Assembly (NCBI GenBank): GCA_009693995.1 | Contig: SHWA01000001.1 | Coordinates: 6,377 to 70,376 of the forward strand | Reading direction: 5' to 3' | From: Alphaproteobacteria bacterium | GTDB taxonomy: Bacteria; Pseudomonadota; Alphaproteobacteria; SHWA01 | Length of the DNA: 64,000 nt | In this document: piece after piece, positions 16 through 27,764 of the stretch | Numbering within the stretch: the first letter of the stretch is position 1 | Layout: each line of letters begins with the position of its first letter | Position numbers and translations under genes: made by a program | Notes under the pieces: model-generated | What the model was told of the DNA's origin: nothing | The model's database searches: none | The model's input: the letters and a program-made list of their open reading frames with translations, nothing else

Positions 16-792
16 TCAAGCATGGGCGCCGGCCGCGGCGGCGCCGAACATGCTGCCGGCGCCGAGATAGATTTCCTGGACCATGGGGTTGTCGCGCACC
101 GCCGCCGGCGTTCCCTCGGCAATCAACTCGCCCCGGTTGAGCACGATGATACGGTCGGCATTGGCGAACACCACGTCCATGTCGTGCTCGGTGAACAGCA
201 CACTGATGCCGCGGTCGTGCACGATCCCGGCGGTCAGCGCCATGAGCGCGATGCGCTCCTTCGGCGCCATGCCGGCGGTGGGCTCGTCCATCAGCAGCAT
301 GCGCGGCCCGTGGGCGAGGGCGACCGCCAGCTCGACCCGCTTGAGGTCGCCATAGGCAAGGACGCTGCAGCGCCGCTCCGCCTGGTCGCGCATGCCGACG
401 GCGTCCAGGAGCGCCAGCGCCTCCTCGCGGTGGAGCCGGGTCGCCAACGTCCAGGGCGCGCGAGTGCGCCGGTGATGCGAGATCAAGGCCATCTGCACAT
501 TCTCGGCGACCGTCATCGAGCCGAAGGTCGCGGTGATCTGGAACGTGCGCCCGACGCCGAGCCGCCAGATGCGCCGGGGGGGAAGGCCGATCAGCTCGTG
601 CCCGGCGAAGGTGACCGAGCCGAGGTCGGGGCGGAGCTGACCGTTGATGCAGTTGAAGCAGGTCGATTTGCCGGCGCCGTTGGGTCCGATCATGGCCAGG
701 ATCTCCCCCGCCGCCAGGGTGAAGTTCACGTCGCGGAGCGCCTGCACGCCGCCGAACGACTTGGCGAGCCCGGAGACGGTCAGCACGCTCAT
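16..792 (-). CDS. ABC transporter ATP-binding protein (branched-chain amino acid LivG/LivF family)
   Basis: 258 aa; Walker A GPNGAGKST, ABC signature/Walker B ...LLMDEPTAGM; ATG at 790-792 overlaps upstream permease stop (ATGA); C-terminal part of the 717-aa run-through track ORF. Confidence 0.85.
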   Translation of the reverse strand: MSVLTVSGLAKSFGGVQALRDVNFTLAAGEILAMIGPNGAGKSTCFNCINGQLRPDLGSVTFAGHELIGLPPRRIWRLGVGRTFQITATFGSMTVAENVQMALISHHRRTRAPWTLATRLHREEALALLDAVGMRDQAERRCSVLAYGDLKRVELAVALAHGPRMLLMDEPTAGMAPKERIALMALTAGIVHDRGISVLFTEHDMDVVFANADRIIVLNRGELIAEGTPAAVRDNPMVQEIYLGAGSMFGAAAAGAHA

Positions 793-2645
793 CGCTCGCC
801 CCCGCCGCCCAGCCCGAGCCGGCCGATGAGCGCCCGGCCCGAGCCGACGATCCCCTTCGGCATCAGGACGCAGATCAGGATGATGATCAGCCCGAACGCC
901 GAGCGCCAATAGTCGAAGGCACTCAGCCGGTCCTCGAGGATCACGAACGTGAGGGCACCCAGGATCGGCCCGACCAGCGTCTGCACGCCGCCGATCAACA
1001 CCATCATCAACGCATCGATCGAGCGCGGGATGTCGACCCAAGTGGGCCCGACGAAGCCCTTGGCAAGCGCCAGCAGGCTGCCGGCGACCCCGGCCGCCGC
1101 CCCAGAGATGATGAAGGCGAGCCAGCGATGGAAGCGGATGTCGATGCCGATCGACTCGGCCCGCATGGGCGAATCCCGCCCCGCACGCAGGGTATAGCCG
1201 AACGGCGCGAACAACAGCCGCCACAAGGTAAAGATGCCGACCGCCGCCAGCGTCAGGGTCAGGTAGTAGAAGACGACGCGGTCCTTCGCCCAGGGCGACG
1301 GCCAGACCCGGTTGACGCCGTCCTCGCCGCCGGTCACGTCGCTCCACTGGAACACGACCGACCACACGATCTGGGCGAAGGCGAGGCTCAGCATCGCCAT
1401 GTAGACGCCCGAGAGGCGTACGCAGAAATAGCCGAACAGCGCCGCCCCCGCCGCCGCGACCACGGGCGCCAGCAGCAGCGTCGCCTCCATGGGCAGGCCG
1501 GCACGGACCAGGAGCATGGCGCAGCCATAGCCGCCGAGGCCGAAATAGGCGGCGTGCCCGAAGCTCACCATGCCGCCGCCGCCCATGATGAAGTGCAGGC
1601 TGGCGGCAAACAGGGCGAAGATGAACACCTGCGTCCACAGCACCAGATAGAACTCGCTCAGCAGCATCGGAATCGCCAGCAGCAGAGCGACGACCGCGAC
1701 GTAGCCGGCCCACCCCAGCGCGCTCGGCAGCCGCGTCAGGGTCTCGTCGCTCTGCACCGGCTCGCCCACGTCCGGCACCGGCTTGCCGAGGATGCCGAAG
1801 GGGCGCGCCACCAGCACCACCACCATCACCAGGAACATCAGCACCAGCGTGATCTTGGGGAAGATCAGGATGCCGAAGGCGCTGAGTTCGCTGATGATCA
1901 CCGCCGCCAGAAACGCACCCGGGATGCTGCCCATGCCGCCGAGGACGACGACGACGAACACGGTGGCGATGATGGAGAGGTCCATCTGGTGGCTGACGCT
2001 GGCGCGCGGCAGCTGCAGCGCGCCGCCGAGTCCGGCCAGAACGGAGCCGAGGAAGAAGACCGCGGTGAAGAGGAGCTTCTGGTTGATGCCGAGGGCGCTC
2101 AGCATCTCGCGGTCCTGGGTCGCGGCGCGCACGACGGCGCCCCAGCGCGTGCGGTTGAACAGCAGCCACAACAGGCCGAGCACGACGAAGCCGAGGGCGA
2201 TCACCACCAGGTCGTATTCAGGCACGCGGGAGCCGAACAGCTCGATCGCCTTGTTCAGGCCGGGCGCGCGCGGGCCCAGCCGATCCTCCGGCCCCCAGAA
2301 GAGGAGTGCGGCGTCCTTCGCCACCATCACCACGCCGAAGGTGGCGACAAGTTGGAACAGTTCCGGCGCCTGGTAGATGCGGCGCAGGATGGTCACCTCC
2401 ATCACCACGCCGATGACGCCGACGGCGAGGGCGGCGAGCACCACTCCGACCCAGAACCCAGTCGGCCCAAGGGGGAGCGTCTTCACCAGCGAATAGGCGA
2501 TGAACGCTCCCAGCATGTAGAACGAGCCGTGGGCGAAGTTCACCACCCGGGTCACGCCGAAGATAATGGTGAGGCCGGACGCCACCAGGAAGAGCGACGC
2601 GGCGCTCGCCAGGCCGGTCAGGAACTGGACGACGTAGAAACCCAT
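789..2645 (-). CDS. Branched-chain amino acid ABC transporter permease, fused LivH+LivM-like domains
   Basis: 618 aa, highly hydrophobic multi-TM protein with two permease-like halves; directly upstream of and overlapping the ATPase. Confidence 0.8.
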   Translation of the reverse strand: MGFYVVQFLTGLASAASLFLVASGLTIIFGVTRVVNFAHGSFYMLGAFIAYSLVKTLPLGPTGFWVGVVLAALAVGVIGVVMEVTILRRIYQAPELFQLVATFGVVMVAKDAALLFWGPEDRLGPRAPGLNKAIELFGSRVPEYDLVVIALGFVVLGLLWLLFNRTRWGAVVRAATQDREMLSALGINQKLLFTAVFFLGSVLAGLGGALQLPRASVSHQMDLSIIATVFVVVVLGGMGSIPGAFLAAVIISELSAFGILIFPKITLVLMFLVMVVVLVARPFGILGKPVPDVGEPVQSDETLTRLPSALGWAGYVAVVALLLAIPMLLSEFYLVLWTQVFIFALFAASLHFIMGGGGMVSFGHAAYFGLGGYGCAMLLVRAGLPMEATLLLAPVVAAAGAALFGYFCVRLSGVYMAMLSLAFAQIVWSVVFQWSDVTGGEDGVNRVWPSPWAKDRVVFYYLTLTLAAVGIFTLWRLLFAPFGYTLRAGRDSPMRAESIGIDIRFHRWLAFIISGAAAGVAGSLLALAKGFVGPTWVDIPRSIDALMMVLIGGVQTLVGPILGALTFVILEDRLSAFDYWRSAFGLIIILICVLMPKGIVGSGRALIGRLGLGGGGER

Positions 2646-2720
2646 GAGCCGCTCATCCGCGCCCGGCGCAGTCGGCGGCGCGGCCCGCCGGGGACCGCGC
2701 CGCCACGCGAGTAGTTGCGA

Positions 2721-3932
2721 TTATTCCTTGCCGCGGAGCTTCTTGATCTCCTCGTCAGGGATGGAGTACTGCGGGCCCTGGGTGTAACGCCAATCGACCA
2801 TGATCGGCTTGCCGTCCTTGACGGCGGTCTTACCGACCCAGGCGCCGAGCGTCGACTGATGGTCGATGTCGCGGAACGTGACCGGACCGGCCACCGAGTC
2901 GAACGTCAGCCCCTTCATCGCAACGATCAGCTTGTCCTGGTCCACGCTGCCGGCCTTCTGGATCATGGCCGCGATCGCCTGGATCGAGACGTAGCCGATC
3001 AGGCTGCCCATCTTGGGCGTCTCCTTGTACTTGGCCTGGTAGTCGTCGATGAACTTCTTGTGCTTCGGATCGGTGATCGCGTACCAGGGATAGCCGGTCA
3101 CGATCCAGCCCTGGGGCGCCTCGGCGCCGAGCGGCTCGAGGTACTCGGGCTCGCCGGTCAGCAATCCGGCCACCACCAGGTCCTTGGTCAGAAGGCCACG
3201 CAGATCCGCCTCGCGCACGAAGGCGGTGAGGTCGCGGCTGAAGAGCGCGTTGAAGATGCCGTCCGGCTTCGCCTGGGCCAAAGCCTGCACGGTCGCGCCG
3301 GCGTCGATCTTGCCGAGCGCCGGCCACTGCTCGACCACGAACTCGACGTCGGGCCGCTTTTCCTTCAGCACGCGCTTGAAAGCGGCGACCGCGTCTTGGC
3401 CGAACTTGTAGTTCGGCGAGACGATGGCCCACCGCTTGGCCTTGGTCTTCGCCGCCTCCTCGGCCAGCATGGCCGACTGGATGTGGGTCGAGGCCCGCAG
3501 GCGGAAGGTATAGTTATGACCCTGCGCCCAGGTGATGTCGTCGCTCATCGGCTCGGTGGCGATGAACAGCTTCTTCTTCTCCTTGGAGAAGTTGGTCACC
3601 GCCACGCCGATGTGTGAGAAGTAGGTACCGGCGAGGATGTCGACCTTGTCCTTGGTGACCAGTTCCTCGGCGATCGAGACCGCGTTCTCGGGCTTGCCGG
3701 CGTCGTCGCGGGCGATCACCTCGAGCGGGCGCCCGATCACCCCGCCCTTGGCGTTGATCTCGTTCACCGCCATCTGCCAGCCCTTGCGGTAAGGCTGGGT
3801 AAAGTCGGCGAGCGCCGTGTAGCTGTTGATCTCGCCGATCTTGATCGGGTCCGCGGCCAGGGCGGCCCCGGCCGCTCCGATCATGATCGCGCTGGCCGCG
3901 ACCATACCGACTAGTCTTTTCGATTGGCTCAT
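2721..3932 (-). CDS. ABC transporter substrate-binding protein (Leu/Ile/Val-binding LivK/LivJ family)
   Basis: 403 aa from ATG 3930-3932 (MSQSKRLVGMVAASAIMIGAAGAALA = signal peptide) preceded by GGAGGA RBS; periplasmic-binding-protein type I sequence features. Confidence 0.85.
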   Translation of the reverse strand: MSQSKRLVGMVAASAIMIGAAGAALAADPIKIGEINSYTALADFTQPYRKGWQMAVNEINAKGGVIGRPLEVIARDDAGKPENAVSIAEELVTKDKVDILAGTYFSHIGVAVTNFSKEKKKLFIATEPMSDDITWAQGHNYTFRLRASTHIQSAMLAEEAAKTKAKRWAIVSPNYKFGQDAVAAFKRVLKEKRPDVEFVVEQWPALGKIDAGATVQALAQAKPDGIFNALFSRDLTAFVREADLRGLLTKDLVVAGLLTGEPEYLEPLGAEAPQGWIVTGYPWYAITDPKHKKFIDDYQAKYKETPKMGSLIGYVSIQAIAAMIQKAGSVDQDKLIVAMKGLTFDSVAGPVTFRDIDHQSTLGAWVGKTAVKDGKPIMVDWRYTQGPQYSIPDEEIKKLRGKE

Positions 3933-4074
3933 GTAGTCCTCCCGTCTCACCTTGACGCCCGCCTCGCGGGCGGGCCCCATCCCGCCATCCCCTCGCGGGG
4001 ATTGGCGGGCGCTCATGTGCGGGCGATCCGTCTTCGCGACCGCCCGCGTCTTTCCGTCTCTCGCATTCCTGCCT

Positions 4075-4542
4075 TCAACTCGGCCGTGCGACCACCGATT
4101 CCACGGCCTCGACGATCTTCTTGTATCCCGTGCAGCGGCAGATGTTGCCGCGCAGCGCATCCACGATCTCGGGCCGCGTCGCCCGCGGCTTCTCGGCGAG
4201 GAGCGCGGTCGCGGTCATCAGGAAGCCCGGCGTGCAATAGCCGCATTGTACCGCACCGAAGCGCAGGAACGATTCCTGCAAGGGCGTCAGATGTCCGTCC
4301 TGCTCCAGGCCTTCCACCGTGGTGATGCGCTCGCCGTCCGCCTGAACCGCGAGCAGGATGCAGGAGCTTGCCGTGCGCCCGTTCACCAGCACCGTGCAGA
4401 CGCCGCAGATCCCCATGCCGCAGTCCTTGTTGGTGCCGGTGAGGCCGAGGGTCTCGCGCAGCACCTCGATCAGGGTCGTGGTCGGCTCGACCCGTGCCCG
4501 GTGGGTCCGCCCGTTGACCTCGAGGGTGATCTCGATGCTCAT
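4075..4542 (-). CDS. (2Fe-2S)-binding small subunit of xanthine dehydrogenase/CO dehydrogenase-family molybdo-hydroxylase (CoxS-like)
   Basis: 155 aa; two [2Fe-2S] Cys motifs (CGMGICGVC ... CGYCTPG ... CRCTGY); GGAGG RBS; ATG 4540-4542. Confidence 0.9.
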   Translation of the reverse strand: MSIEITLEVNGRTHRARVEPTTTLIEVLRETLGLTGTNKDCGMGICGVCTVLVNGRTASSCILLAVQADGERITTVEGLEQDGHLTPLQESFLRFGAVQCGYCTPGFLMTATALLAEKPRATRPEIVDALRGNICRCTGYKKIVEAVESVVARPS

Positions 4543-5432
4543 CGCCTCGCCTCCACCCCGCGAGCGGCTCGGGCGCACGCCCGCGCCAGGGTCCGGCGCA
4601 GGATCACGGTCGCCACGTGCCGCTTGAAGTCCGCCGAGTAGAGATGGTCGGCGAGCGGCTCGATCTCATCCACCAGAACATCGCAGGCGCGGTCGATGAC
4701 TGCCGGCTCCGGCCGCATCCCCCGGAGCGCCGCCTCGGTCGCCCGCGCCCAGACCGGAATCGGCCCGACCCCGCCGAGGCCGAGGCCGATATCCTTGATG
4801 CACCCGGTCGCCGGCTCGACCACGGCGCGCACCCCGACCGCCACCGTCGAGGTGTAGTCCATCGCCCGCCGCGCGGCAAACTTGCCGTAGGCGGTGCCGG
4901 CGCCGGGCGCGAGCGGTGGGAACAGCACCTCCTGCAGCAGCTCGCCCTCTCGCAGCGCGGTGGTGTAGAGGTCCCGGAAGAACTCGGTCGCCGGGATGTC
5001 GCGCACGCCCAGAGGCCCGGCGGCGCGCATGGTGGCGCGGAGCGCGATCACCGCGACCGGCGGGTCGCCCTGGGGATCGGCCAGACTGAGATTGCCGCCA
5101 AAGGTGCCGCGGTTCTTGATCCGCCCACAGGCGATCTCGGCCGCCATCTCGGGCAACATGGGCTGGGCGGCGGCCACCGCCGGCGATTCCTCGACCTCGC
5201 GGTGGGTGGTGAGTGCGCCGATGCGGAGCGTACCGTCGGGGCCCCGCACGATGCCCTTCAGCGCCTCGATCCGGCTGATATCCACCAGCCAGGTCGGGGA
5301 GACCAGCTTCTCGTTCATCAGGATGCCGAGGGCGATGCCGCCGGCGATCACATGGGCGTCCCCCTTGGCCTCGGCCAGGGCGGCGACCGCCTCGTCCACG
5401 CGCCGCGCGCGGGTATAGCGGCACTCGCTCAT
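4539..5432 (-). CDS. FAD-binding medium subunit of molybdo-hydroxylase (CoxM/XdhB-like)
   Basis: 297 aa; FAD-binding PCMH-type sequence (AGG..L, TFGGNL); start overlaps large-subunit stop by 4 nt, stop overlaps small-subunit start. Confidence 0.85.
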   Translation of the reverse strand: MSECRYTRARRVDEAVAALAEAKGDAHVIAGGIALGILMNEKLVSPTWLVDISRIEALKGIVRGPDGTLRIGALTTHREVEESPAVAAAQPMLPEMAAEIACGRIKNRGTFGGNLSLADPQGDPPVAVIALRATMRAAGPLGVRDIPATEFFRDLYTTALREGELLQEVLFPPLAPGAGTAYGKFAARRAMDYTSTVAVGVRAVVEPATGCIKDIGLGLGGVGPIPVWARATEAALRGMRPEPAVIDRACDVLVDEIEPLADHLYSADFKRHVATVILRRTLARACARAARGVEARR

Positions 5433-7864: not shown

Positions 7865-7882
7865 CGCCCCGCTCCCACCGGT

Positions 7883-10006: not shown

Positions 10007-10013
10007 CGCTTGC

Positions 10014-11630: not shown

Positions 11631-12565
11631 GACACCCGGCCGGGCGCGATCTGGTCGAGCGCAGGCATCACCTCGCGCGCCAGGCGCTCCAGATGCCGGC
11701 GCCGGTCGTTCGGCGGCATGATCGGCGCGAGGATCAGGTAGTTGGCCCCGGCCTCGACGTACTTGGCGAGATACTCCGTGATCCGCGCCGGCGGGCCAAA
11801 GGCGCAGTATTTCTCCACCAACTGCGCGAAGTCCTGGTCGTAGCGGTAGCTCAGCTCCTTGACGCCCGAGGCGCGCGCCTTGGCCACGTCGTCGTCAAGC
11901 GCGACATAGATGAAGCAGGCGAACACGTAGTCCGCAGGCAGCTCGCGGCCGCCCTCACGGGCGAACTGCTTCACCTGGGTGAAGGAGTCGCGGCATCGGT
12001 CGGCCGTGTACATGTACGGGTGCCAGCCGTCGCCGAGCTTGGCGGCGCGGCGCATGGGCCCCTCCTGCCGCCCCGACACCCAGATCGGGATGGTGCCGTT
12101 CACGGGACGCGGCAGCATGTCCACGTCCGCGAGATCGAAGATCTTGCCCTTGTAGTCGAAGCGCTTGCCCGACCAGTACTGGCGCATGATCTCGATCGCT
12201 TCGGTCGAGCGCTGGCCGCGCTCGTTGATCGGCACGCCGCAGCCGGCGAACTCGCGCGGGTAGTCGCCGCCGACGCCGACCGTCAGCAGCACGCGGCCGC
12301 CCGACAGCACGTCGAGGCACGAAAACTGCTTGGCCACCATGGTCGGGTGGCGCAAGGGAAGCAGCAGGGTCGCCGGCCCGATCTTGATGCGCGACGTCAG
12401 CGCCGCCGCCCAGGCGAGCGTGGTCACCGCCTCCAGGATCGGGCGGTGGTAGACGATATGCTCGCCGGTCCAGAAGCTGTGGTAGCCGAACTCCTCGACC
12501 GAGCGGATGTCGGCGGCCTGCCAATGGTCGCCCCCACAGGTGATCCCGATCTTCGCCGACATCAC
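11627..12565 (-). CDS. LLM-class flavin-dependent oxidoreductase (luciferase-like monooxygenase)
   Basis: 312 aa; luciferase-like TIM-barrel sequence (SFWTGEH ... GDGW); overlaps AMP-ligase start by 4 nt. Confidence 0.8.
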   Translation of the reverse strand: MMSAKIGITCGGDHWQAADIRSVEEFGYHSFWTGEHIVYHRPILEAVTTLAWAAALTSRIKIGPATLLLPLRHPTMVAKQFSCLDVLSGGRVLLTVGVGGDYPREFAGCGVPINERGQRSTEAIEIMRQYWSGKRFDYKGKIFDLADVDMLPRPVNGTIPIWVSGRQEGPMRRAAKLGDGWHPYMYTADRCRDSFTQVKQFAREGGRELPADYVFACFIYVALDDDVAKARASGVKELSYRYDQDFAQLVEKYCAFGPPARITEYLAKYVEAGANYLILAPIMPPNDRRRHLERLAREVMPALDQIAPGRVS

Positions 12566-12574
12566 CGCCTCTCC

Positions 12575-14257
12575 TTACTCGGCCGCCCGGGCGTGGCCGT
12601 AGTCCGCGCGCGCGGCCGCGCGGCCGATCTTCTCCTCGCGCAGGTCGCGCTGGATCGCTTCCTGCGCGCGCTCCGCCGGTGCGCCGTAGCCTCCGCCGCC
12701 CTGCGTCCACATGCTGAGCACGTCGCCCCGGTGCAGGCGCAGGTTCACGTTCTTGGAGGCGAGCTCCCTGGGCGCCGGCCCGTCCGGGTTCAGCACCAGG
12801 CGCCCGGTCTTCCCCGAGCCGCCGCCGAACAGGCCGAAGGGCGCCACCTTGAATTTGTCGAACTGGGTCTCGACCGCGCCGACCTCGTCCAGGAACTCGA
12901 TGTCGCGGCGCACGCCGAGCCCGCCGCGGAAGCGCCCGGCTCCGCCGGTGTCGGGGATGAACTCGTAACGCTTGAAGCGCAGCGGATAGTTCAGCTCGAC
13001 CATCTCGATCGGCGTGTTGGCGAGGTTGTGGATGCCTTGCGAGTAGCAGTCGAGGCCGTCCTTGGTGGCGCGCGCGCCGCCGCCGCCGACCTCGATGTCG
13101 AACAGAATCCAGCCGCGGCGGTCGGCGCCCTCGCCTTCGCCCGAGAGGATGTAGACGTTGGACATGCCGTAATAGGCCGCCGTGATCCGCTCGGGCACCA
13201 CCTTGGAGAGTGCCATCATCAGGGCGTTGACGATGGTGTGGGTGATCGCGTTGCGCCCGACCACCGGGGCCGGCGGATTGGCGTTCACCACGGTGCCTGC
13301 GGGCGCGGTGATGGTGATCGGGCGATAGACGCCGTAATTGGCCGGGATGGTCGGGTCGAGGATCGAGAGGATGGCGAAATAGGTCGCCGATTCGCACGAC
13401 GAAATGGTGGCGTTGATGGGCGCGCGGCGCTGTCGGTCGGTGCCGGTGAAATCGACGTGGATGCCACCGTCCTTGATCGTGATCCTGGTCGCGATCCGGA
13501 TCGGCTCATCGACCACGCCGTCGTCATCCACGTAGTAGACGCCCTCGAACGTGCCTTCGGGCAGCTCACGGATGCGCTCGCGCAGCCGTGATTCGGAGAT
13601 GTCGACCGCGTCCAGCATGCAGTCGCGAAAGCCCTCGGCGCCGTAGCGCTCCACCAGATCGAGGACGCCGGCGCGGCCGATCTCGAGCGCCGCCGCCTGG
13701 GCGCGCAGGTCGCCGATCGTCTGTTCCGGCTGGCGGATGTTGGCCTCGATCAGGTCGAACAGGCGCTGGTTCAGCTTGCCGGCCTCGAACAGCTTGATCG
13801 GCGGGATGCGCAGTCCCTCCTGGTAGATCTCGACCGCATCTCCGGCATAGCTGCCGGGACGCATGCCGCCGACATCGAGATGGTGGCCGAGGGTGCCGCA
13901 GATCGCCACCATCTCGCCGCCCGCGAACACCGGCAGGAAGGTCTGAATGTCGGGCAGGTGCTGACCGCCGCGGTAGGGATCGTTGGTGATGATGATGTCA
14001 CCTTCATGCCACTCGATCTTGGGGAACGACTGGTCGAGGGTGGTGCGCAGCGACCGCGACATGGAATTGAGGTGGATCGGGATGCGGCACGACTGGGCGA
14101 TGATCCGCCCCTCGGGGTCGAACACGGCCGTCGAGTAGTCCAGCATTTCGCGGATGACGGTCGAATAGGACGTGCGCAGGATGGTCGCCGCCATCTGCTC
14201 GGCGACGCCGACGAGGGCGTTGTTGACCACTTCGAGGGTGATGGGATCGACGCGCAT
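12575..14257 (-). CDS. Hydantoinase B / 5-oxoprolinase family protein (HyuB-like)
   Basis: 560 aa; hydantoinase_B family features (DPYRGGQHLPD, GGGGYG); 4 nt after hyuA stop. Confidence 0.9.
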   Translation of the reverse strand: MRVDPITLEVVNNALVGVAEQMAATILRTSYSTVIREMLDYSTAVFDPEGRIIAQSCRIPIHLNSMSRSLRTTLDQSFPKIEWHEGDIIITNDPYRGGQHLPDIQTFLPVFAGGEMVAICGTLGHHLDVGGMRPGSYAGDAVEIYQEGLRIPPIKLFEAGKLNQRLFDLIEANIRQPEQTIGDLRAQAAALEIGRAGVLDLVERYGAEGFRDCMLDAVDISESRLRERIRELPEGTFEGVYYVDDDGVVDEPIRIATRITIKDGGIHVDFTGTDRQRRAPINATISSCESATYFAILSILDPTIPANYGVYRPITITAPAGTVVNANPPAPVVGRNAITHTIVNALMMALSKVVPERITAAYYGMSNVYILSGEGEGADRRGWILFDIEVGGGGARATKDGLDCYSQGIHNLANTPIEMVELNYPLRFKRYEFIPDTGGAGRFRGGLGVRRDIEFLDEVGAVETQFDKFKVAPFGLFGGGSGKTGRLVLNPDGPAPRELASKNVNLRLHRGDVLSMWTQGGGGYGAPAERAQEAIQRDLREEKIGRAAARADYGHARAAE

Positions 14258-14261
14258 GGTC

Positions 14262-16319
14262 TCAGCTCCCGATCGCGATCAGCAGGTTGCCGAAGTCGTC
14301 CACCCGCGCCTTCTGGCCCGGGTGGATGACGGTGGTGGTGTCGATCTGTTCGACGATGGCCGGCCCGGCGATGGTGGCGCCAGGCCCCAGGCGCTCGCGG
14401 TCGTAGACGGCGGTCGCGACATAGCCCGCGGCCTCGTCGAAATAGACCTGGCGCCGTTCCTTGGGAACGACGGCCCCGCCATTCGCCTTCGCGCGTGGCT
14501 GGATCGGCGGCGCCGACATCAGCCCGAGCGCGGCAATCCGCGCGCTCACGAACTCGACCGCCTTGTCGGGGTGGTTGTGGGCGAAGGACTGCAGGTGCCG
14601 ATCATGGAAGCGCAGGACCAGCGCCGCGACCGCCGCCGCGTCCAGGGTGCCCGCCGGCAGGGCCACGTTCACTTCGTAGGCCTGGCCGGCATAGCGCAGA
14701 TCGGCGGTGCGCTGCAGCAGCCGCTTCGCGCGCGGCACGCCATCTTCGGCGAGGGCCGCGTCGGCTTCGGCCTCGAGCGCGGCATAGAGCGGCGCGACCG
14801 CCGCCGGGGTGATTGCCGCCCCGCGCAGGACTCGGGTCTGCACCGCGTCGTGGCGGATGTCGGCCATCACCAGGCCAACCGCCGAGAACACGCCCGGCTG
14901 TTCGGGCACCAGGACGCTGGGAATGCGCGCCGCCTGGGCCAGCGCCGCGGCGTGCATCGGGCCGGCGCCGCCGAAAGCAACCAGGGTGATGCTGCGCGGG
15001 TCGTACCCTTTTTCGGCCGAGGAGACGCGCACCGCGCGCTCCATGTTGGCGTTGGCGATGCGGATGATCCCGGCCGCGGCCTGCTCGACGCTGAGCTTGA
15101 GCGGCGCACCCACCCGCTCCGCGATTGCCCGCCGGGCCGCCTCGCGGTCGAGGCGGATGTCGCCACTGGCGAACCGATCGGGGTGCAGCCGGCCGAGCAC
15201 CAGGTTGGCGTCGGTCACGGTCGGCTCGGTGCCGCCGCGGCCATAGGCGACGGGGCCGGGATCGGCGCCGGCGCTCATGGGCCCGACGTGCAGGCCGCCG
15301 GCGCTGTCGAGCCAGGCGATCGATCCGGCCCCGGCGCCGATGGTGTTGATCTCGATCATCGGCAGCTTCACGGGGCGCCCGGCGACCGCGCCCTCGGTGG
15401 TCATGCGGAGTTCCCCCCGGTGGATGAGGGAGATGTCGGTCGAAGTGCCGCCCATGTCGACACCGAGCAGGTTGTCGTAGGCGGTCGCCTTGCCGATCCG
15501 CTGCACGGCGAGCGCGCCACCGGCCGGACCAGAGGTGAGCATGCGCACCGGGTAGTTCTGCGCCGCCCCGACGGTCAGCGACCCCCCGCTGGACTGCATG
15601 AGCAGCACCTTGGCGTTCGGCAGCACCGCACCGACCCGGCCCGCGATCTCGCTCAAATAGCGGGCGACGAGGGGCATCGCGGCGGCGTTCAGCGCCACGG
15701 TGCTCATGCGCTCGTACTCGCGGATCTCGCGGCAGACCTCGCAACTGGCGGAGACATGGATGCCGGGCAGCTCCGCCCGCGCCCAATCCCGCACCTTGGC
15801 CTCGTTGGCCGGATTGACGAAGGAGTTGAGGAAGCAGATGGCGAGCGCTTCGGCGCCGCTCTCCTTCACCTGGGCGAGCAGGCGCTGCACCTCCTGGCGC
15901 TCGGGCTCGCGGATGACCTCACCAGTCGCGGTGGTGCGCTCGGCCACGCCGAAGCGGCGGTCGCGCGGTACCACGGGCGGGGCCTTGTCCTGTTGCAGGT
16001 CGTACATGTCGGGGCGGAAATGGCGCCCGATCTCGAGGATGTCGCGGAACCCCTCGGTGGTGAGCAGGGCGGTCTTCGGCAGTTTGTTCTCGAGCACCGC
16101 GTTGGTGACGATAGTGGTGCCGTGCACCAGAAGCGTCACGTCGCCGGGGGCGACCTTGGCCAGTTCCAGCCCGCGCCGCACCGCATCCACCAGCGCCCCC
16201 GCCGGGTCGCCGCGCCGGCTCGGCACCTTGGCGATCGCCAGCCGCCCCGTCGCCTCGTCCAGCACCGTGATGTCGGTGAAGGTGCCGCCGATGTCGATGC
16301 CGATGCGAACCGCGCCCAT
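14262..16319 (-). CDS. Hydantoinase A / oxoprolinase family protein (HyuA-like, ATP-dependent)
   Basis: 685 aa from ATG 16317-16319 (MGAVRIGIDIGGTFTD = ASKHA ATPase phosphate-1 motif); the 842-aa track ORF is an upstream run-through. Confidence 0.9.
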   Translation of the reverse strand: MGAVRIGIDIGGTFTDITVLDEATGRLAIAKVPSRRGDPAGALVDAVRRGLELAKVAPGDVTLLVHGTTIVTNAVLENKLPKTALLTTEGFRDILEIGRHFRPDMYDLQQDKAPPVVPRDRRFGVAERTTATGEVIREPERQEVQRLLAQVKESGAEALAICFLNSFVNPANEAKVRDWARAELPGIHVSASCEVCREIREYERMSTVALNAAAMPLVARYLSEIAGRVGAVLPNAKVLLMQSSGGSLTVGAAQNYPVRMLTSGPAGGALAVQRIGKATAYDNLLGVDMGGTSTDISLIHRGELRMTTEGAVAGRPVKLPMIEINTIGAGAGSIAWLDSAGGLHVGPMSAGADPGPVAYGRGGTEPTVTDANLVLGRLHPDRFASGDIRLDREAARRAIAERVGAPLKLSVEQAAAGIIRIANANMERAVRVSSAEKGYDPRSITLVAFGGAGPMHAAALAQAARIPSVLVPEQPGVFSAVGLVMADIRHDAVQTRVLRGAAITPAAVAPLYAALEAEADAALAEDGVPRAKRLLQRTADLRYAGQAYEVNVALPAGTLDAAAVAALVLRFHDRHLQSFAHNHPDKAVEFVSARIAALGLMSAPPIQPRAKANGGAVVPKERRQVYFDEAAGYVATAVYDRERLGPGATIAGPAIVEQIDTTTVIHPGQKARVDDFGNLLIAIGS

Positions 16320-16330
16320 GACCCCGTCCT

Positions 16331-17134
16331 TCACTTCCCGGCCGCGCCGCCCAAGGCCGACGGCCGCGTCCGTTTGGCTCGCGCCGGCCGCGCCGCCAAT
16401 GGGCTCGCGCGCCGGTTGAAGCCGATGGCGAAGTGGAACTTGCAGCGGTCGACGCGGTAGCTGATGGTGCCGGCCTCGATCGGCGTGCCGCCGGCGATGC
16501 GCCAGGTGTAGGTGTTGGCCAGCACCAGCGTGCGCGGGCCGACGTCGAGTGCCGCCGCCACGTCGCGCGGTGCCGGCGTGATCTCGCTGTCCCAGTCCGA
16601 CTCGACAATCGGCGACCCAACCAGGTCCTCGATCACCTCGGAGGCATCGCGGTGCTCGACCCGTTTCGGGTCGAGCCGCGCCGCGATCCAGGCTGGATAG
16701 TAACGCCGGTCGTGGCAGACGATGCGCCCGTCGACCAGGCGCACCAGGCTCAGGCAGCCGACCTGGCTGTCCGCTGGCAGACCCAGGCAAAGGCGCATGG
16801 CGGTCGGCGCCGGCATCACCGGCTCATAGCTGAGGATGCGCGTCACGAAGGCGACGCCCTGGCTGGCCAGGTCCTGCTCGAAACTGGTGAGGGGCGCAAA
16901 GCGGCGGGTGATCTTGGGTGGATTGACGGTGGTGCCGCGACCGCGCAGCCGGGATACCAGGCCACCCCGCTCCAGCAGATCGAGCGCGCCGCGGACCGTG
17001 ATGCGGCTGACCCGGAATCGCTCGGCCAGTTGCTCTTCGGTCGGCAGCAGCGAGTTGGGGCCGAGGCGGCCGATCTCGCCCTCGAGCCAAGCCGCCACGT
17101 CGAGATAGAGCGGAGAACGGGTGCCGCCAGCCAT
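16331..17134 (-). CDS. GntR-family transcriptional regulator (HutC/UTRA subfamily)
   Basis: 268 aa from ATG 17132-17134; N-terminal wHTH (LPTEEQLAERFRVSRITVRGALDLLERGGLV) plus UTRA effector domain; first gene of the minus-strand operon. Confidence 0.85.
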   Translation of the reverse strand: MAGGTRSPLYLDVAAWLEGEIGRLGPNSLLPTEEQLAERFRVSRITVRGALDLLERGGLVSRLRGRGTTVNPPKITRRFAPLTSFEQDLASQGVAFVTRILSYEPVMPAPTAMRLCLGLPADSQVGCLSLVRLVDGRIVCHDRRYYPAWIAARLDPKRVEHRDASEVIEDLVGSPIVESDWDSEITPAPRDVAAALDVGPRTLVLANTYTWRIAGGTPIEAGTISYRVDRCKFHFAIGFNRRASPLAARPARAKRTRPSALGGAAGK

Positions 17135-17203
17135 CGATCTCCCCCAGACCCATACCAGCGGGCCGAGACTGGCGCGGCATGGCGACGTTGTCAATACTGA
17201 TAA

Positions 17204-17211
17204 GTTATAAC
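17204..17211. promoter_or_regulatory. Candidate GntR operator: perfect palindrome GTTATAAC in the AT-rich leader
   Basis: GT-N4-AC arrangement typical of GntR-family sites, inside the only AT-rich stretch (17190-17225) between gntR and cyt b561. Confidence 0.4.
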
Positions 17212-17234
17212 ATTTACAGTCAGCCGCCGCCCCC

Positions 17235-17765: not shown

Positions 17766-18911
17766 TCAGCGCCGGCGGGCCGCGTGCCGCAACGGCTCGG
17801 GGTCGATCTCGTCCAGCAGATGGCCGACCCGGGTCGCCTTGGCTTCCAGATAGCGGCGGTTCTCGTGATTGACCGGCGCGATCACCGGCAGCCGATCGAC
17901 CACCGTGACACCGGCCGCCGCCACGGCGTCGATCTTGGACGGGTTGTTGGTCAGCAGCATGATGCGCGTGACGCCGAGCAACTCCAGCATGCGCGCGGCC
18001 ACGTCGTAGTGTCGTTCGTCGTGCTCGAAGCCGAGCGTGGTGTTGGCATCGAAGGTGTCCAGCCCGCGGTCCTGCAGGACATAGGCGCGCATCTTGTTGG
18101 CCAGGCCGATGCCGCGGCCCTCCTGGTCGAGATAGAGTACGACCCCGCCGCCACGCTCGTGCATCATCTCGGTGGCGATGCGCAACTGGTCGCCGCAGTC
18201 GCAGCGCAGCGACCCGAACACGTCCCCGGTCAGGCAGGCGGAATGCAGCCGCACAGGAACCACGCCGGCGAGGTCGGGCTGGCCGATCAAGACCGCCGTC
18301 GACAGGCGTCCCAACACGTCGCGGAACACGACCAACTGGCTGTCATGGGCGGCGCGCAAGGGAACCCGGGCGCGGCTGACGATCTCGAGCGACCGTGCCC
18401 GCATCGCCTCGAACTCGGCGATGCGCTCGGCCGGCAGGGTGATCAAGCCGTCCAAGGCGACCCCCGGCGCGACCCGCGCCACCACCGGTGCCGGCAGCAG
18501 GAGCGCGAGCTTGGCGAGGGCAATTGCCGCCGCCGCGGCTTCATCGCCCGGAACCGCCCGCTGGGTCGGCCGCACCGGCTCGCCTGCCGCCAGCTCCGCG
18601 ATCCAGGTGCTGGTCACCTCCGGTGCCAGGTCGATCATGGTCACGCGATCCCCGAGGCCGAGGGCCGCGGCCCGGTGACCGGAAATGGCGAGGGCGAGGG
18701 CGCCACCCCGCGCCACTCGCCGCAAGGCCGCGAGCGCCGCCGGCTCCGCCGCCTCGGCGGACAACGCCAGCAGCCGGACGCCGCCCGCCTGCAAGACCAC
18801 GGGCCGGCCGGCCTGAAGCTCGGCAATGCCACGCTCGATCGCCACGGCGGCCGGCTCGACCCCCGGTTTGGCAAAGAGACTGGATAGATCCTTCAAGACC
18901 TTGGTCCTCAA
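17766..18911 (-). CDS. ribA: GTP cyclohydrolase II with degenerate N-terminal RibB-like domain
   Basis: 381 aa; C-terminal GCHII signature RLHSACLTGDVFGSLRCDCG ... zinc/GTP motifs; N-terminal ~170 aa resembles DHBP synthase but lacks acidic catalytic motif. Confidence 0.8.
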   Translation of the reverse strand: MRTKVLKDLSSLFAKPGVEPAAVAIERGIAELQAGRPVVLQAGGVRLLALSAEAAEPAALAALRRVARGGALALAISGHRAAALGLGDRVTMIDLAPEVTSTWIAELAAGEPVRPTQRAVPGDEAAAAAIALAKLALLLPAPVVARVAPGVALDGLITLPAERIAEFEAMRARSLEIVSRARVPLRAAHDSQLVVFRDVLGRLSTAVLIGQPDLAGVVPVRLHSACLTGDVFGSLRCDCGDQLRIATEMMHERGGGVVLYLDQEGRGIGLANKMRAYVLQDRGLDTFDANTTLGFEHDERHYDVAARMLELLGVTRIMLLTNNPSKIDAVAAAGVTVVDRLPVIAPVNHENRRYLEAKATRVGHLLDEIDPEPLRHAARRR

Positions 18912-21039: not shown

Positions 21040-21040
21040 C

Positions 21041-25751: not shown

Positions 25752-25768
25752 TCCCCGGAGGGATCGCC

Positions 25769-27283: not shown

Positions 27284-27292
27284 CACTCCGAC

Positions 27293-27757: not shown

Positions 27758-27764
27758 GGCCCGT

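Follow-up and report, generated by a model that had tools for sequence, protein, structure and literature searches.

A conserved proteobacterial gene cluster with a possible role in the catabolism of a nicotinate-type pyridine carboxylate

The cluster described here lies in a 64 kb window (the whole stretch of DNA that was analysed) and forms a predicted operon under GntR/HutC control. We give about even odds (roughly 0.5) that its products import and break down an N-heteroaromatic carboxylic acid of the pyridine type, with nicotinate, or a compound very close to it, as the most likely substrate. The original prediction had been broader, namely a GntR/HutC-controlled set of genes for taking up and degrading a cyclic amide or an N-heterocyclic acid. 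Synteny, the lactamase scores of HyuB and the placement of CoxL support it, and the range of likely substrates now narrows to pyridine carboxylates of the nicotinate or nicotinamide type.

Gene organization and regulatory region

Gene models were set by inspection of start codons and Shine-Dalgarno sites. The order, with families assigned by Pfam and NCBIfam, is gntR-hyuA-hyuB-LLM-AMP ligase-ADP-forming CoA synthetase-coxLMS-livK-livHM-livG, all on the minus strand:

17189–17211, minus: candidate promoter/operator 5' of gntR; palindrome GTTATAAC and TTGACA −35-like hexamer
16331–17134, minus: GntR/HutC-family regulator, 267 aa (Pfam GntR, UTRA)
14262–16319, minus: HyuA, ATP-binding subunit of hydantoinase/oxoprolinase-type lactamase, 685 aa (Pfam Hydant_A_N, Hydantoinase_A, Hydant_A_C)
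12575–14257, minus: HyuB, lactamase catalytic subunit, 560 aa (Pfam Hydantoinase_B, full length)
11627–12562, minus: luciferase-like (LLM) oxidoreductase, F420_Rv2161c type, proposed ring reductase, 311 aa (Pfam Bac_luciferase)
10014–11630, minus: AMP-forming acyl/aryl-CoA ligase, 538 aa (Pfam AMP-binding, AMP-binding_C)
7883–10006, minus: ADP-forming (NDP-forming) acyl-CoA synthetase, fused alpha-beta, 707 aa (Pfam CoA_binding_2, Succ_CoA_lig, ATP-grasp_5)
5429–7864, minus: CoxL-like molybdopterin subunit, xanthine-oxidase family, proposed nicotinate-type 6-hydroxylase, 811 aa (Pfam Ald_Xan_dh_C, MoCoBD_1, MoCoBD_2)
4539–5432, minus: CoxM-like FAD subunit, 297 aa (Pfam FAD_binding_5, CO_deh_flav_C)
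4075–4542, minus: CoxS-like subunit, two [2Fe-2S] clusters, 155 aa (Pfam Fer2, Fer2_2)
2721–3932, minus: LivK-type periplasmic binding protein, proposed nicotinate-type, 403 aa (Pfam Peripla_BP_6)
789–2645, minus: fused LivH/LivM permease, 618 aa (hydrophobic throughout; identity to relatives)
16–792, minus: LivG-type ABC ATPase, 258 aa (Walker A GPNGAGKS in translation)
1–23, minus: start of livF (second ABC ATPase), truncated by the window edge (ATG at 23 overlapping the livG stop; translation MLEVQGL)

All twelve co-directional genes that had been predicted are present, and Pfam and NCBIfam agree on their families. However, the count of twelve falls short by one, as livF starts at position 23 and brings the predicted operon to 13 genes. 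Intergenic gaps from gntR to livG are, in order, 11, 4, 12, −4, 7, 18, −4, −4, 142, 75 and −4 nt. The nine regulatory and catabolic genes are spaced by 4–18 nt or overlap, and each of the four −4 nt overlaps is an ATGA, in keeping with the starts said to overlap the preceding stop. The gaps of 4–10 nt claimed earlier do not extend to livK, which is flanked by the widest gaps of the cluster (142 nt to coxS and 75 nt to livHM).

The palindrome GTTATAAC (17204–17211) adjoins the −35-like hexamer at 17189–17194. It occurs once across the 64 kb window and is also found 5' of gntR in two syntenic loci (L024 and L025). We take it to match the GT-N-AC type of GntR-family operator, as a candidate only. 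The regulator reaches no NCBIfam equivalog cut-off; it heads the cluster in L003, L024, L025, L101 and L105 at 58–67% identity.

Conservation of the cluster in relatives

The order hyuA-hyuB-(MLE)-LLM-AMP ligase-ADP ligase-coxLMS recurs in L002, L003/L106, L005, L007, L024, L025, L100, L101, L105, L110 and L111, and at least 12 loci, from metagenome-assembled genomes of Alpha-, Beta- and Gammaproteobacteria, carry the core together with an orthologous CoxL. Because the same gene order is seen in many independent contigs, the arrangement is far beyond chance. In five more loci (L103/L104 and L107–L109; HyuB 76–81% identical) the same core lies beside a non-orthologous molybdenum hydroxylase, which is CODH-group-5-like, has the gene order M-S-L and has a CoxL of 28–32% identity. 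HyuAB and a Cox-type hydroxylase thus co-occur well beyond this contig, and since the lactamase core adjoins a molybdenum hydroxylase even where the latter is not orthologous, their functional coupling appears to be maintained.

The LLM gene is present in every syntenic locus. Between hyuB and LLM almost all syntenic relatives have an extra enolase-superfamily (MR/MLE) gene belonging to the MLE subgroup, home of N-acyl-amino-acid racemases and dipeptide epimerases. It is absent here: hyuB and LLM lie 12 nt apart, and the whole 64 kb window contains no homolog. The AMP ligase is missing from L003, L105 and L106, and the ADP-forming synthetase from L101, L103, L110 and L111, with a family III CoA-transferase instead in L110. 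Each of the two CoA enzymes is therefore dispensable on its own, while at least one CoA-activating enzyme of these three kinds is always kept. A thioesterase-domain fragment lies downstream in L101, and L107 carries a flavoprotein resembling KstD and 4-oxocyclohexanecarboxylate dehydrogenase.

In L024, L025 and L028, coxS is followed by PncA and then by a MarR regulator. PncA scores above the NCBIfam nicotinamidase equivalog cut-off (211.9 vs 174), and in L024 and L025 it lies 3' of the whole array in the same orientation. The MarR protein is NicR-like, being 36–45% identical to the MarR of nic clusters. The syntenic loci with this pair of genes are those of marine relatives. In L020, coxLMS and the transporter form a free-standing module without the hyu core.

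Family placement of enzymes and transporter

The best NCBIfam models of HyuAB are the caprolactamase subunits (alpha model for HyuA, 526 bits, under the cut-off of 1000). HyuA is 61–74% identical across the syntenic loci, and at least 120 database clusters, all environmental, are at least 75% identical to HyuB. Against PDB chains, HyuB scores 298 bits with N-methylhydantoinase and 270 with caprolactamase, but 124 with acetophenone carboxylase and 77 with acetone carboxylase. By these comparisons HyuAB probably falls in the lactamase branch of the family and not in the ketone-carboxylase branch.

CoxL contains the GGAFGGK motif and GAKGVAE with the catalytic Glu, and both cysteine motifs are seen in CoxS. 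The best single PDB chain (399 bits) and best NCBIfam model for CoxL are the alpha subunit of 4-hydroxybenzoyl-CoA reductase (HcrA). However, the split nicotinate dehydrogenase chains of Eubacterium barkeri match non-overlapping parts of CoxL at 292 and 205 bits, summing to 497. From its PDB scores CoxL appears to sit with N-heterocycle and aryl-CoA hydroxylases, and two more specific assignments were rejected. Carbon monoxide dehydrogenase is excluded by the absence of the AYxCSFR loop, and 4-hydroxybenzoyl-CoA reductase by a score of 538 against an equivalog cut-off of 994.55 (identity about 39%) and by CoxM, which has no HcrB-type 4Fe-4S insertion, only five scattered Cys and a match to the HcrB model at just residues 3–117. 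A sister clade of CoxL (L018 and L102; 58% identical) adjoins amidohydrolase and AA_synth genes, which share 41–43% identity with their counterparts in the Hnr cluster of Sulfitobacter.

The LLM protein scores 175.9 bits with TIGR03619, over the cut-off of 166.9, and its best PDB relatives are the F420-dependent Mer and Fgd enzymes. For the AMP ligase, which has a TSGTTGDLKG motif, the best NCBIfam model is cyclohexanecarboxylate-CoA ligase (462 bits, under the cut-off of 792) and the closest PDB matches are enzymes that adenylate aryl acids. The ADP-forming synthetase has a phosphohistidine-type motif (SHTGAAAG) and is closest in the PDB to 4-hydroxybutyrate-CoA ligase [ADP-forming] (388 bits).

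LivK is about 63% identical to PDB 3I45. Four cultured genera have a binding protein 55–56% identical to it within their nicotinate clusters, which are of Hnr type in Sulfitobacter and a Comamonadaceae strain and of the P. putida nic type in Roseomonas and Agrobacterium vitis. LivHM is 52–62% identical to the fused permeases of nicotinate clusters (72–74% in L001, L020 and L100) and LivG 58–67% identical to their ATPases. L020, L100 and L114–L116 also carry a second ATPase gene after livG. A 'putative nicotinate ABC transporter' has been described in such clusters (PMC3511419). However, closer LivK homologs (65–78% identical) sit in contexts without nicotinate genes, and in several relatives a TRAP transporter or another Liv-type transporter takes its place; the transporter argument therefore amounts to an association at about 55% identity and falls short of proof.

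A nicotinate-type route and its alternatives

In the route that we favour, the acid would be imported by the LivKHMGF transporter, and in some relatives nicotinamide would feed in through PncA. CoxLMS would then place a water-derived hydroxyl beside the ring nitrogen, giving the 6-hydroxy acid, that is, its 2-pyridone (lactam) tautomer; the stand-alone coxLMS-transporter module fits such hydroxylation of a free imported acid. The AMP-forming ligase might next convert the ring acid to its CoA thioester, rendering the ring reducible by the LLM (F420/flavin-type) oxidoreductase to a tetrahydro- or piperidone-type lactam. ATP-dependent cleavage of the lactam C-N bond by HyuAB would free the nitrogen and leave a C5/C6 dicarboxylate of 2-formylglutarate or glutarate type. 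The ADP-forming synthetase may act on its CoA ester, either releasing CoA with recovery of ATP or providing glutaryl-CoA for central metabolism. Nicotinate degradation via 1,4,5,6-tetrahydro-6-oxonicotinate (THON) and glutarate is known (PMC3511419). Unlike the present proposal, with LLM, HyuAB and CoA enzymes, the THON route uses a ferredoxin-dependent 6-hydroxynicotinate reductase and an enamidase. The window contains no genes of the known lower pathways of nicotinate degradation.

Several points count against this route. All close relatives are uncultured, no enzyme of the cluster reaches an NCBIfam equivalog cut-off for a characterised function, and the near-universal MR/MLE gene is given no job. 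Few Proteobacteria use F420, and the window showed no genes for its biosynthesis. To our knowledge, nicotinate chemistry involves no ring CoA ester, ATP-dependent lactamase or enolase-superfamily enzyme, and we know of no report of 6-hydroxynicotinoyl-CoA as a metabolite.

Since the best single PDB chain for CoxL acts on a CoA ester, the hydroxylase could act after the ligase, not before. It is conceivable, though unlikely, that the substrate is a five-membered or alpha-carboxylated N-heteroaromatic acid (pyrrole-2-carboxylate, picolinate) degraded as a CoA ester from the start, on the documented model of the furoyl-CoA pathway (PMC3223595). The ligase, akin to enzymes that activate ring-attached carboxylates, would form the aryl-CoA, which CoxLMS would hydroxylate beside the nitrogen to a lactam-CoA and LLM would reduce to 5-oxoprolyl-CoA (or 6-oxopipecolyl-CoA). 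The ADP-forming synthetase would free the acid and regain ATP, and HyuAB, acting like 5-oxoprolinase, would yield glutamate (or 2-aminoadipate). Such a scheme would employ all genes and end in a central metabolite with no need of extra enzymes; the MR/MLE enzyme of relatives would racemise an internal N-acyl amino acid, in line with its subgroup, and the thioesterase fragment of L101 would suit the missing ADP-forming enzyme. However, the transporter, PncA with the NicR-like MarR, and the sister-clade contexts indicate a pyridine-3-carboxylate, and both the exchange of the hydroxylase for a non-orthologous one and the L020 module are easier to explain with a free-acid substrate. The window moreover has no MR/MLE gene, and no database or paper was found to tie pyrrole-2-carboxylate to these genes.

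The L020 module, the different hydroxylase beside the hyu core in L103 and L107, the caprolactamase models of HyuAB and the wide coxS-livK gap could also mean that two unrelated neighbours have met: coxLMS with livKHMGF for nicotinate uptake and hydroxylation, and gntR-hyuAB-LLM-ligases for growth on a saturated lactam (valerolactam, caprolactam or an oxoproline-like compound, for instance). We consider this distinctly improbable, as a xanthine-oxidase-family hydroxylase lies beside the hyu core wherever the flank sufficed, with the sole exception of L026 (4.3 kb, on one side), and adjacency even to a non-orthologous hydroxylase argues for selection on the pairing. In addition, the two modules meet across just 18 nt here, from the ADP ligase to coxL, without a terminator-like site, and the nicotinamidase of L024 and L025 follows the entire array.

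Acetone and acetophenone carboxylases belong to the HyuAB superfamily, and HyuAB might accordingly be an ATP-dependent ketone carboxylase or a dehydratase/activating enzyme in a cluster for breaking down a ketone or a carbocyclic compound such as an alicyclic acid, as the cyclohexanecarboxylate model of the ligase and the L107 flavoprotein would suggest. This is very doubtful in view of the HyuB scores, its length of 560 aa, which is that of hydantoinase-type beta subunits and unlike carboxylase subunits (size criterion from PMC5214803), the absence of carboxylase accessory subunits, and the evidence for an N-heterocycle from PncA, the NicR-like genes and the transporter of nicotinate type. 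A reductive CoxLMS that dehydroxylates the ring of an aryl-CoA during anaerobic degradation of aromatics, as its HcrA matches might suggest, is hardly tenable given the sub-cut-off HcrA score, the missing beta-subunit cluster, which largely refutes it, and the finding of no benzoyl-CoA reductase or ferredoxin genes nearby.

Full-text literature searches turned up no description of this gene set, which agrees with the earlier view that it is not a characterised pathway. Pathways of apparently kindred logic exist for anaerobic indoleacetate, furoate and, via THON, nicotinate degradation. If the nicotinate-type route is correct, the combination of enzymes assembled here for such breakdown is most likely new and not described before.

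Architecture of the operon and its predicted enzymes

Since the G+C content of the window is ~70%, genes were called from third-position G+C together with start-site context. The operon runs on the minus strand from position 17134 down to 1 and consists of the following genes, listed in the order of transcription.

gntR, GntR/HutC regulator, 267 aa
hyuA, hydantoinase-type subunit A, 685 aa
hyuB, hydantoinase-type subunit B, 560 aa
LLM, luciferase-like oxidoreductase, 311 aa
AMP-forming ligase, 538 aa
fused ADP-forming acyl-CoA synthetase, 707 aa
coxL, large subunit of a molybdenum (Mo) hydroxylase, 811 aa
coxM, medium subunit, 297 aa
coxS, small subunit, 155 aa
livK, substrate-binding protein (SBP) of an ABC transporter, 403 aa
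livHM, fused permease, 618 aa
livG, ATPase, 258 aa
livF, of which only the first seven codons lie inside the window

The intergenic gaps from gntR to livG are 11, 4, 12, -4, 7, 18, -4, -4, 142, 75 and -4 nt, and each of the four overlaps is an ATGA. A scan for promoter- and terminator-like sites inside the array found no excess over shuffled controls and no site that splits the operon. The 100 nt spacer 5' of gntR carries the palindrome GTTATAAC, the sole copy in the window, adjoining a TTGACA hexamer; this palindrome also precedes gntR in two syntenic metagenome loci. All of the enzyme families named in the original prediction are borne out by Pfam and NCBIfam.

Upstream on the same strand (17766-21475) are genes for cytochrome b561, a 6-pyruvoyl-tetrahydropterin synthase homolog and a GTP cyclohydrolase II homolog with an N-terminal extension of ~175 aa. 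None of the three is kept beside the cluster in its relatives, and the cytochrome b561 and GTP cyclohydrolase II genes are therefore not counted as members of the operon. Further away, heterotetrameric sarcosine-oxidase-like genes (35793-41133, minus strand), including SoxG and an alpha subunit that carries the domains GCV_T and SO_alpha_A3, adjoin several amidohydrolases and M20/M48 peptidases (25346-35791), and together they may be another catabolic island for N-compounds. At 55267-61807 another LLM oxidoreductase gene is clustered with those for a 760 aa molybdoenzyme of the DMSO reductase family and for the alpha subunits of two Rieske-type oxygenases; no link between this cluster and the operon was found.

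CoxLMS carries MoCo-binding, FAD-binding and double [2Fe-2S] domains on three subunits (Pfam), and the Cys motifs of CoxS can be read directly from its sequence. CoxL contains GGAFGGK at residue 279 and GAKGVAE at residue 749, the catalytic glutamate of which aligns with the AKEASE motif of HcrA. CoxLMS is thus predicted to be a molybdenum hydroxylase of the xanthine oxidase/CODH family. Chains A and B of 3HRD, the split nicotinate dehydrogenase of Eubacterium barkeri, cover CoxL residues 49-452 and 473-792 with 292 and 205 bits, and their sum of 497 bits, for which no curated threshold exists, is the highest of any PDB entry. The best single PDB chain is the alpha subunit of 4-hydroxybenzoyl-CoA reductase (1RM6_A, 399 bits, ~39% identity). 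Some CoxL orthologs are named 'nicotinate dehydrogenase large molybdopterin subunit', an automated JGI label that is weak evidence, and identity to the plasmid-borne enzymes of nic clusters is only 27-37%.

Two members of the family were considered as identities of CoxLMS and rejected. For CO dehydrogenase (form I CoxL), the AYxCSFR loop is absent, and the scores of the CODH models (242-296 bits) lie below their cut-offs of 950-991. For 4-hydroxybenzoyl-CoA reductase (HcrABC), the alpha subunit model scores 538 bits against an equivalog cut-off of 994.55, and CoxM (297 aa, 5 scattered Cys) has no extra [4Fe-4S] insertion. The HcrB model matches CoxM with 92.9 bits in two stretches, the best-scoring of which spans residues 3-117 only.

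HyuA has the domains Hydant_A_N, Hydantoinase_A and Hydant_A_C, each matched from end to end, and HyuB is a full-length Hydantoinase_B, with residues 4-527 aligning to positions 1-519 of the 519 in the profile (Pfam). In a comparison with PDB entries, HyuB reaches 298 bits against N-methylhydantoinase and 270 bits against caprolactamase, compared with 124 bits for acetophenone carboxylase and 77 bits for acetone carboxylase. The beta subunit has been reported to be ~560-580 aa long in the hydantoinase type and 680-780 aa in the carboxylases (PMC5214803). These scores and the size of 560 aa place HyuB in the lactamase branch, so that HyuAB is predicted to be an ATP-dependent lactamase of the 'Hyd' branch. 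It resembles caprolactamase CapAB, N-methylhydantoinase and 5-oxoprolinase in its two-subunit HyuA/HyuB architecture, in its sizes and in its best scores. However, the scores for CapA and CapB (526 and 325 bits) stay below the NCBIfam equivalog cut-offs of 1000, and the context of Mo-hydroxylase, ligases and LLM differs from that of every characterised ATP-dependent lactamase.

The LLM protein passes the cut-off of TIGR03619 (F420-type LLM); among solved structures it is most closely related to F420-dependent reductases and dehydrogenases rather than to flavin monooxygenases. We read it as a reductase because it is 311 aa long and a partner flavin reductase is absent. The closest matches of the AMP-forming ligase are cyclohexanecarboxylate-CoA ligase and enzymes that adenylate aryl acids, all of which take ring-attached carboxylates. 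The ADP-forming enzyme is a complete fused NDP-forming synthetase with CoA-binding, Succ_CoA_lig and ATP-grasp domains, and a phosphohistidine-type SHTGAAAG motif can be read from its translation.

Conservation and variation among environmental relatives

Syntenic loci were collected by scanning genomes and metagenomes with CoxL and the ADP-forming synthetase as anchors, and by looking up the gene context of CoxL and HyuB homologs. The original prediction, which had proposed one catabolic operon for a cyclic amide or N-heterocyclic acid, named co-occurrence elsewhere as its check, and the same array was indeed recovered repeatedly in other genomes and metagenomes. The recurrent order is (gntR)-hyuA-hyuB-MR/MLE-LLM-AMP ligase-ADP synthetase-coxL-coxM-coxS, where MR/MLE is an enolase-superfamily gene.

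Amino acid identity between proteins of the syntenic loci and those of the window
HyuB: 67-81%
HyuA: 61-74%
LLM: 65-76%
AMP ligase: 62-69%
ADP synthetase: 56-61%
CoxL: 60-74%

The host MAGs belong to Alphaproteobacteria (including Kiloniellaceae and Rhodospirillaceae) and one Burkholderiales, and the marine hosts are Gammaproteobacteria (Arenicellales, Acidiferrobacteraceae and Tara contigs). The window lies on a 70.6-kb contig from a MAG of Alphaproteobacteria. Close homologs of HyuB and CoxL are essentially all environmental, the close relatives all being MAGs or metagenome contigs; at least 120 HyuB clusters reach at least 75% identity, with Tara and Arctic marine contigs as well as MAGs of Arenicellales among them. 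A search of plasmids of cultured organisms found no CoxL above 37% identity, and it pointed to a nicotinate-type cluster of Sulfitobacter. An exact look-up of the window HyuB sequence returned no record.

The MR/MLE gene (MLE subgroup, 385 aa) lies between hyuB and LLM in nearly all syntenic relatives (for example at 4084-5244 in L002 and 3950-5107 in L100, two such loci), and its products are 56-86% identical among them. It is absent from the window, where the junction between hyuB and LLM (12563-12574) is 12 nt long and no homolog is present anywhere in the 64 kb; either the gene has been cleanly lost or it is located elsewhere in the genome.

A group of variant loci (L103/L104 and L107-L109) keeps an orthologous core with HyuB 76-81%, MR/MLE 67-71%, LLM 69% and ligase 62% identical. 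Their Mo-hydroxylase is non-orthologous, with a CoxL only 28-32% identical to that of the window, M-S-L gene order and a CODH-group-5-like character, and it is accompanied by CoxG and a KstD/flavocytochrome-like FAD protein. This arrangement occupies 1048-6492 and 15556-17811 in L103/L104 and 1681-7681 in L107-L109. The persistence of the lactamase/Mo-hydroxylase pairing through this replacement is the strongest argument that both act in one pathway. L103 has three further features: an additional Mo large subunit that stands alone, a gene for a PIN toxin between the modules and, downstream, one for BrxL (BREX).

Conversely, in L020 a coxLMS (73% identical) is found with the same ABC transporter and the hyu core is not nearby, which suggests that hydroxylase and transporter form an upper module acting on the imported free acid. 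The LivK-type transporter is present in the window, L001, L020 and L100, another Liv type in L007, and a TRAP transporter (DctPQM) in L002, L003 and L005. Inference of the ligand from the TRAP binding protein of these relatives was abandoned, its PDB matches being distant (~114 bits). The TRAP locus that accompanies the cluster in L002, L003 and L005 has a homolog in the window itself, at 48842-51250, which looks degraded: dctP is 5'-truncated and matches residues 198-383 only (72% identical), and dctM is split over two frames near 50981/51014. Either the alternative transporter has been pseudogenised and this locus is what remains of it, or the MAG may be misassembled here.

Each of the CoA-activating enzymes is singly dispensable among the relatives, yet at least one is present in every locus. 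The AMP ligase is missing from L003, L105 and L106, and the ADP-forming enzyme from L101, L103, L110 and L111. In L110 its place is taken by a family III CoA-transferase, whose best NCBIfam hit, far below threshold, is succinate-glutarate CoA-transferase, and in L101 a thioesterase-domain fragment is found downstream. L110 also has xdhC and a MocA-like cytidylyltransferase, genes that would be expected to go with a molybdoenzyme of the MCD (molybdopterin cytosine dinucleotide) type. The Burkholderiales locus L007 carries a formate-tetrahydrofolate ligase gene (7840-9606) between the ADP-forming synthetase and coxL, which hints at formate as a product of the pathway in this organism. A second hyuA/hyuB pair in L101 (18143-22403) is divergent, at 41-42% identity, and is accompanied by a DUF1989 gene; IS21-type transposase genes separate it from the cluster, which is a few kb away.

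Links to nicotinate and a proposed route

LivK is ~63% identical to PDB 3I45 of Rhodospirillum rubrum, which is annotated only as 'twin-arginine translocation pathway signal protein'. A full-text literature search found no publication on this structure, which is apparently unpublished; it may contain nicotinic acid, a point that was not used as evidence, and any ligand bound in it would give a direct clue to the substrate. A plasmid search with LivK returned 29 records at 54-56% identity, and all five of the loci inspected, from four cultured genera, lie in nicotinate clusters of two types.

Nicotinate clusters around plasmid-borne LivK homologs
Sulfitobacter pontiacus: Azorhizobium/E. barkeri type; 6-hydroxynicotinate reductase (Hnr), UPF0280, two AA_synth proteins, amidohydrolase, XDH-family enzyme
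Comamonadaceae strain: Azorhizobium/E. barkeri type; same gene set as Sulfitobacter pontiacus
Roseomonas mucosa: P. putida nic type; 2Fe-2S and large Mo protein, FAD monooxygenase, MarR
Agrobacterium vitis: P. putida nic type; the Roseomonas mucosa set and Asp/Glu-racemase-family, alpha/beta-hydrolase, aminopeptidase-like and isochorismatase-family genes

The products of the Roseomonas and Agrobacterium loci are those which we take to be NicAB, NicC, NicR and NicE/D/X/F. Identity to the transporters of nicotinate clusters is 55-56% for the SBP, 52-62% for the fused permease and 58-67% for the ATPase; closer SBP homologs (65-78% identical) sit in contexts without nicotinate genes. A conserved nicotinate cluster has been described that includes a 'putative nicotinate ABC transporter' (PMC3511419). 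Rieske oxygenases found beside SBP homologs in two loci (L023 and L113) were dropped as a link, being mutually unrelated.

A second line of evidence comes from the sister clade of CoxL (L018 and L102, 58% identical), which adjoins amidohydrolase and AA_synth genes 41-43% identical to those of the Sulfitobacter cluster. Besides the amidohydrolase and AA_synth genes, coxLMS is accompanied in both loci by an FrsA-like hydrolase and a GntR/FCD regulator, and L102 further has two UbiD decarboxylases, UbiX and TctABC. This gene set suggests a pathway that degrades pyridine (di)carboxylates and is related to the nicotinate clusters of the Hnr type. Thirdly, in three marine syntenic loci (L024, L025 and L028) coxS is followed, at 14514-15614, 15890-17043 and 5462-6562 respectively, by the nicotinamidase gene pncA (211.9 against an NCBIfam equivalog cut-off of 174) and then by a NicR-like MarR, 36-45% identical to the MarR of nic clusters. 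L025 continues beyond the MarR gene with an Amidohydro_2 protein and with the large Mo subunit of a second, CODH-like enzyme. PncA and the NicR-like MarR are absent from the window, and a tblastn search of the window for Hnr, enamidase, NicC, NicX and NicD/F/E gave nothing significant.

On the evidence of the transporter, the sister clade and PncA/MarR, we infer a mechanism of the nicotinate type. The acid would be imported and hydroxylated as the free acid beside the ring nitrogen by the Mo enzyme (nicotinate to 6-hydroxynicotinate, a 2-pyridone lactam). The ring acid would then be activated with CoA, and the LLM enzyme would reduce the activated ring by hydride transfer. HyuAB would open the saturated or partly saturated lactam in an ATP-dependent reaction, nitrogen would leave as ammonium, and a glutarate-type dicarboxylate would be linked to CoA metabolism by the ADP-forming synthetase (by the CoA-transferase in L110). 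Read from the 3' end, the gene order of the operon is colinear with these steps, which is suggestive only. 1,4,5,6-Tetrahydro-6-oxonicotinate (THON) is cleaved by enamidase without ATP, and among characterised HyuAB enzymes those nearest to this one use unactivated lactams as substrates; for both reasons a fully reduced lactam is favoured as the putative substrate of HyuAB. The MR/MLE enzyme of the relatives might racemise a lactam carboxylate, eliminate ammonia from the beta position of the ring-opened amino acid, or process 2-formylglutarate. Three weak points would fit glutarate or formate as an end product: the formate-tetrahydrofolate ligase of L007, the match of the L110 transferase far below threshold, and the Azorhizobium nicotinate pathway via glutarate (PMC3511419).

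We put the probability that the operon encodes one N-heterocycle pathway, in which hydroxylation yields a lactam that is opened by HyuAB, at about 0.6-0.65. For the scheme set out above, including a substrate of the nicotinate type, the odds are roughly even, and confidence in the exact order of steps is low. In an elegant alternative use of all the genes, CoA activation would come first as in the furoate pathway, leading from pyrrole-2-carboxylate or picolinate to glutamate or 2-aminoadipate, and the MLE-subgroup enzyme would be explained as an N-acyl-amino-acid racemase; the transporter, PncA/MarR and the sister clade, however, lend it no support. That two unrelated modules happen to lie side by side is contradicted by a pairing which outlasts non-orthologous replacement. 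HyuAB as a carboxylase and CoxLMS as a reductive dehydroxylase both fail, the family-specific features of these enzymes being wanting.

Relation to known pathways and implications

The logic of the operon resembles that of nicotinate degradation via THON, of anaerobic indoleacetate degradation and of the furoate pathway, but it probably belongs to none of these, since their defining downstream genes are absent and the scores fall short of the equivalog thresholds. The THON route of E. barkeri and Azorhizobium caulinodans proceeds through nicotinate dehydrogenase, Hnr and enamidase to glutarate; its details were reportedly worked out by Kitts in 1992 (the Azorhizobium route via glutarate) and by Alhapel in 2006. 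It likewise has a xanthine-oxidase-family hydroxylase, the E. barkeri enzyme being the best solved relative of CoxL when its split chains are summed, and an ABC transporter 52-67% identical to the one studied here. The operon would share its overall logic, in which the position beside the nitrogen is hydroxylated, the ring reduced and a cyclic amide hydrolysed, with release of NH3 and a glutarate-type skeleton at the end (PMC3511419). However, Hnr, UPF0280, AA_synth and the enamidase-like amidohydrolase of the THON clusters are wanting here, and the operon has instead the LLM oxidoreductase, HyuAB, the AMP-forming ligase and the ADP-forming CoA synthetase, to which the relatives add MR/MLE.

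The P. putida-type nic cluster (nicAB, nicC, nicX, nicD, nicF, nicE, nicR) has the transporter family in common through the plasmid clusters of Roseomonas mucosa and Agrobacterium vitis, and MarR (36-45% identity) in common with the marine relatives of the operon. It differs in its hydroxylase, NicAB having a cytochrome c domain whereas the present enzyme has three subunits (L/M/S) with an FAD subunit, and in its regulator, which is a MarR instead of GntR/HutC.

The iaa pathway of Aromatoleum aromaticum combines, as here, an AMP-forming CoA ligase (IaaB) with HyuAB-family enzymes. Its cluster presumably encodes a Mo enzyme of the xanthine oxidase family as well, and to our knowledge it is without an LLM, an ADP-forming synthetase or MR/MLE. 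The iaa HyuAB-family enzymes are a predicted 2-oxoindoleacetyl-CoA gamma-lactamase, acting on a lactam beside the ring nitrogen (PMC5214803, PMC8360864). Membership was rejected, as mutase, CoA-transferase and acyl-CoA dehydrogenase domains are absent from the ORFs scanned across the window, where the B12-dependent mutase IaaGH, the family III CoA-transferase IaaL and the benzylmalonyl-CoA (acyl-CoA) dehydrogenase IaaF are thus missing. Furthermore, the AMP ligase resembles ring-carboxylate ligases, unlike the arylacetate ligases of the iaa type.

The furoate (Trudgill) pathway hmfABCDE comprises a CoA ligase, a three-subunit Mo dehydrogenase acting beside the heteroatom and a final removal of CoA (PMC3223595), and by this description it would share CoA ligation, Mo hydroxylation beside the heteroatom and terminal CoA removal with the operon. 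The lactone of its O-heterocycle opens without ATP, whereas the ATP-dependent lactamase of the operon is what a nitrogen ring leads one to expect. The published criterion for an hmf cluster is that genes at least ~40% similar to HmfA, HmfD and HmfE lie close together (PMC3223595). The plasmid-borne relatives of CoxL in Cupriavidus and others do not exceed 37% identity, and Pfam detects no HmfE-like enoyl-CoA-hydratase or thioesterase gene in the operon.

In the isonicotinate route of Mycobacterium sp. INA1 (via citrazyl-CoA), a pyridine carboxylate is hydroxylated in a Mo-dependent reaction and activated with CoA, after which the CoA ester is reduced and the ring is opened by hydrolysis; this would be the closest biochemical precedent for CoA activation of a hydroxypyridine carboxylate before reduction. 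The route hydroxylates its substrate twice, and the cyclic imide that it opens is cleaved without ATP; we know of no genes identified for it. The homarine operon homABCDER (PMC13236597) was set aside, its enzyme families being different (a flavin oxygenase pair, a peptidase and an aldehyde dehydrogenase). Full-text literature searches found no description of the present gene combination. As judged from gene content, the operon probably represents an uncharacterised catabolic route assembled from known enzyme families, widespread in uncultured Proteobacteria and acting on a nicotinate-type substrate.

A more specific and rather unlikely version would be a B3 route, unknown till now and widespread in uncultured marine and soil Proteobacteria, in which the CoA thioester of 6-hydroxynicotinate is reduced by the F420/flavin-type LLM enzyme rather than the ferredoxin-dependent Hnr, the lactam is opened by ATP-driven HyuAB rather than enamidase, and the ADP-forming synthetase recycles CoA and recovers part of the ATP. 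Pyridine carboxylates, for example nicotinate and nicotinamide, are vitamins that also occur commonly as dissolved metabolites, and their consumers and routes affect the traffic of B vitamins in sea and soil. As the cluster is present in many environmental genomes and in essentially no cultured strain, the pathway would be invisible to current annotation. If the proposal is true, aerobes would have CoA/ATP-driven chemistry in place of low-potential ferredoxin-dependent ring reduction and a metal amidohydrolase, and bacterial ADP-forming acyl-CoA synthetases would acquire a new catabolic role. It would also provide a new class of physiological substrate for HyuAB lactamases, which are of interest for the biocatalysis of lactams and nylon monomers and would gain a new natural substrate and set of partners.
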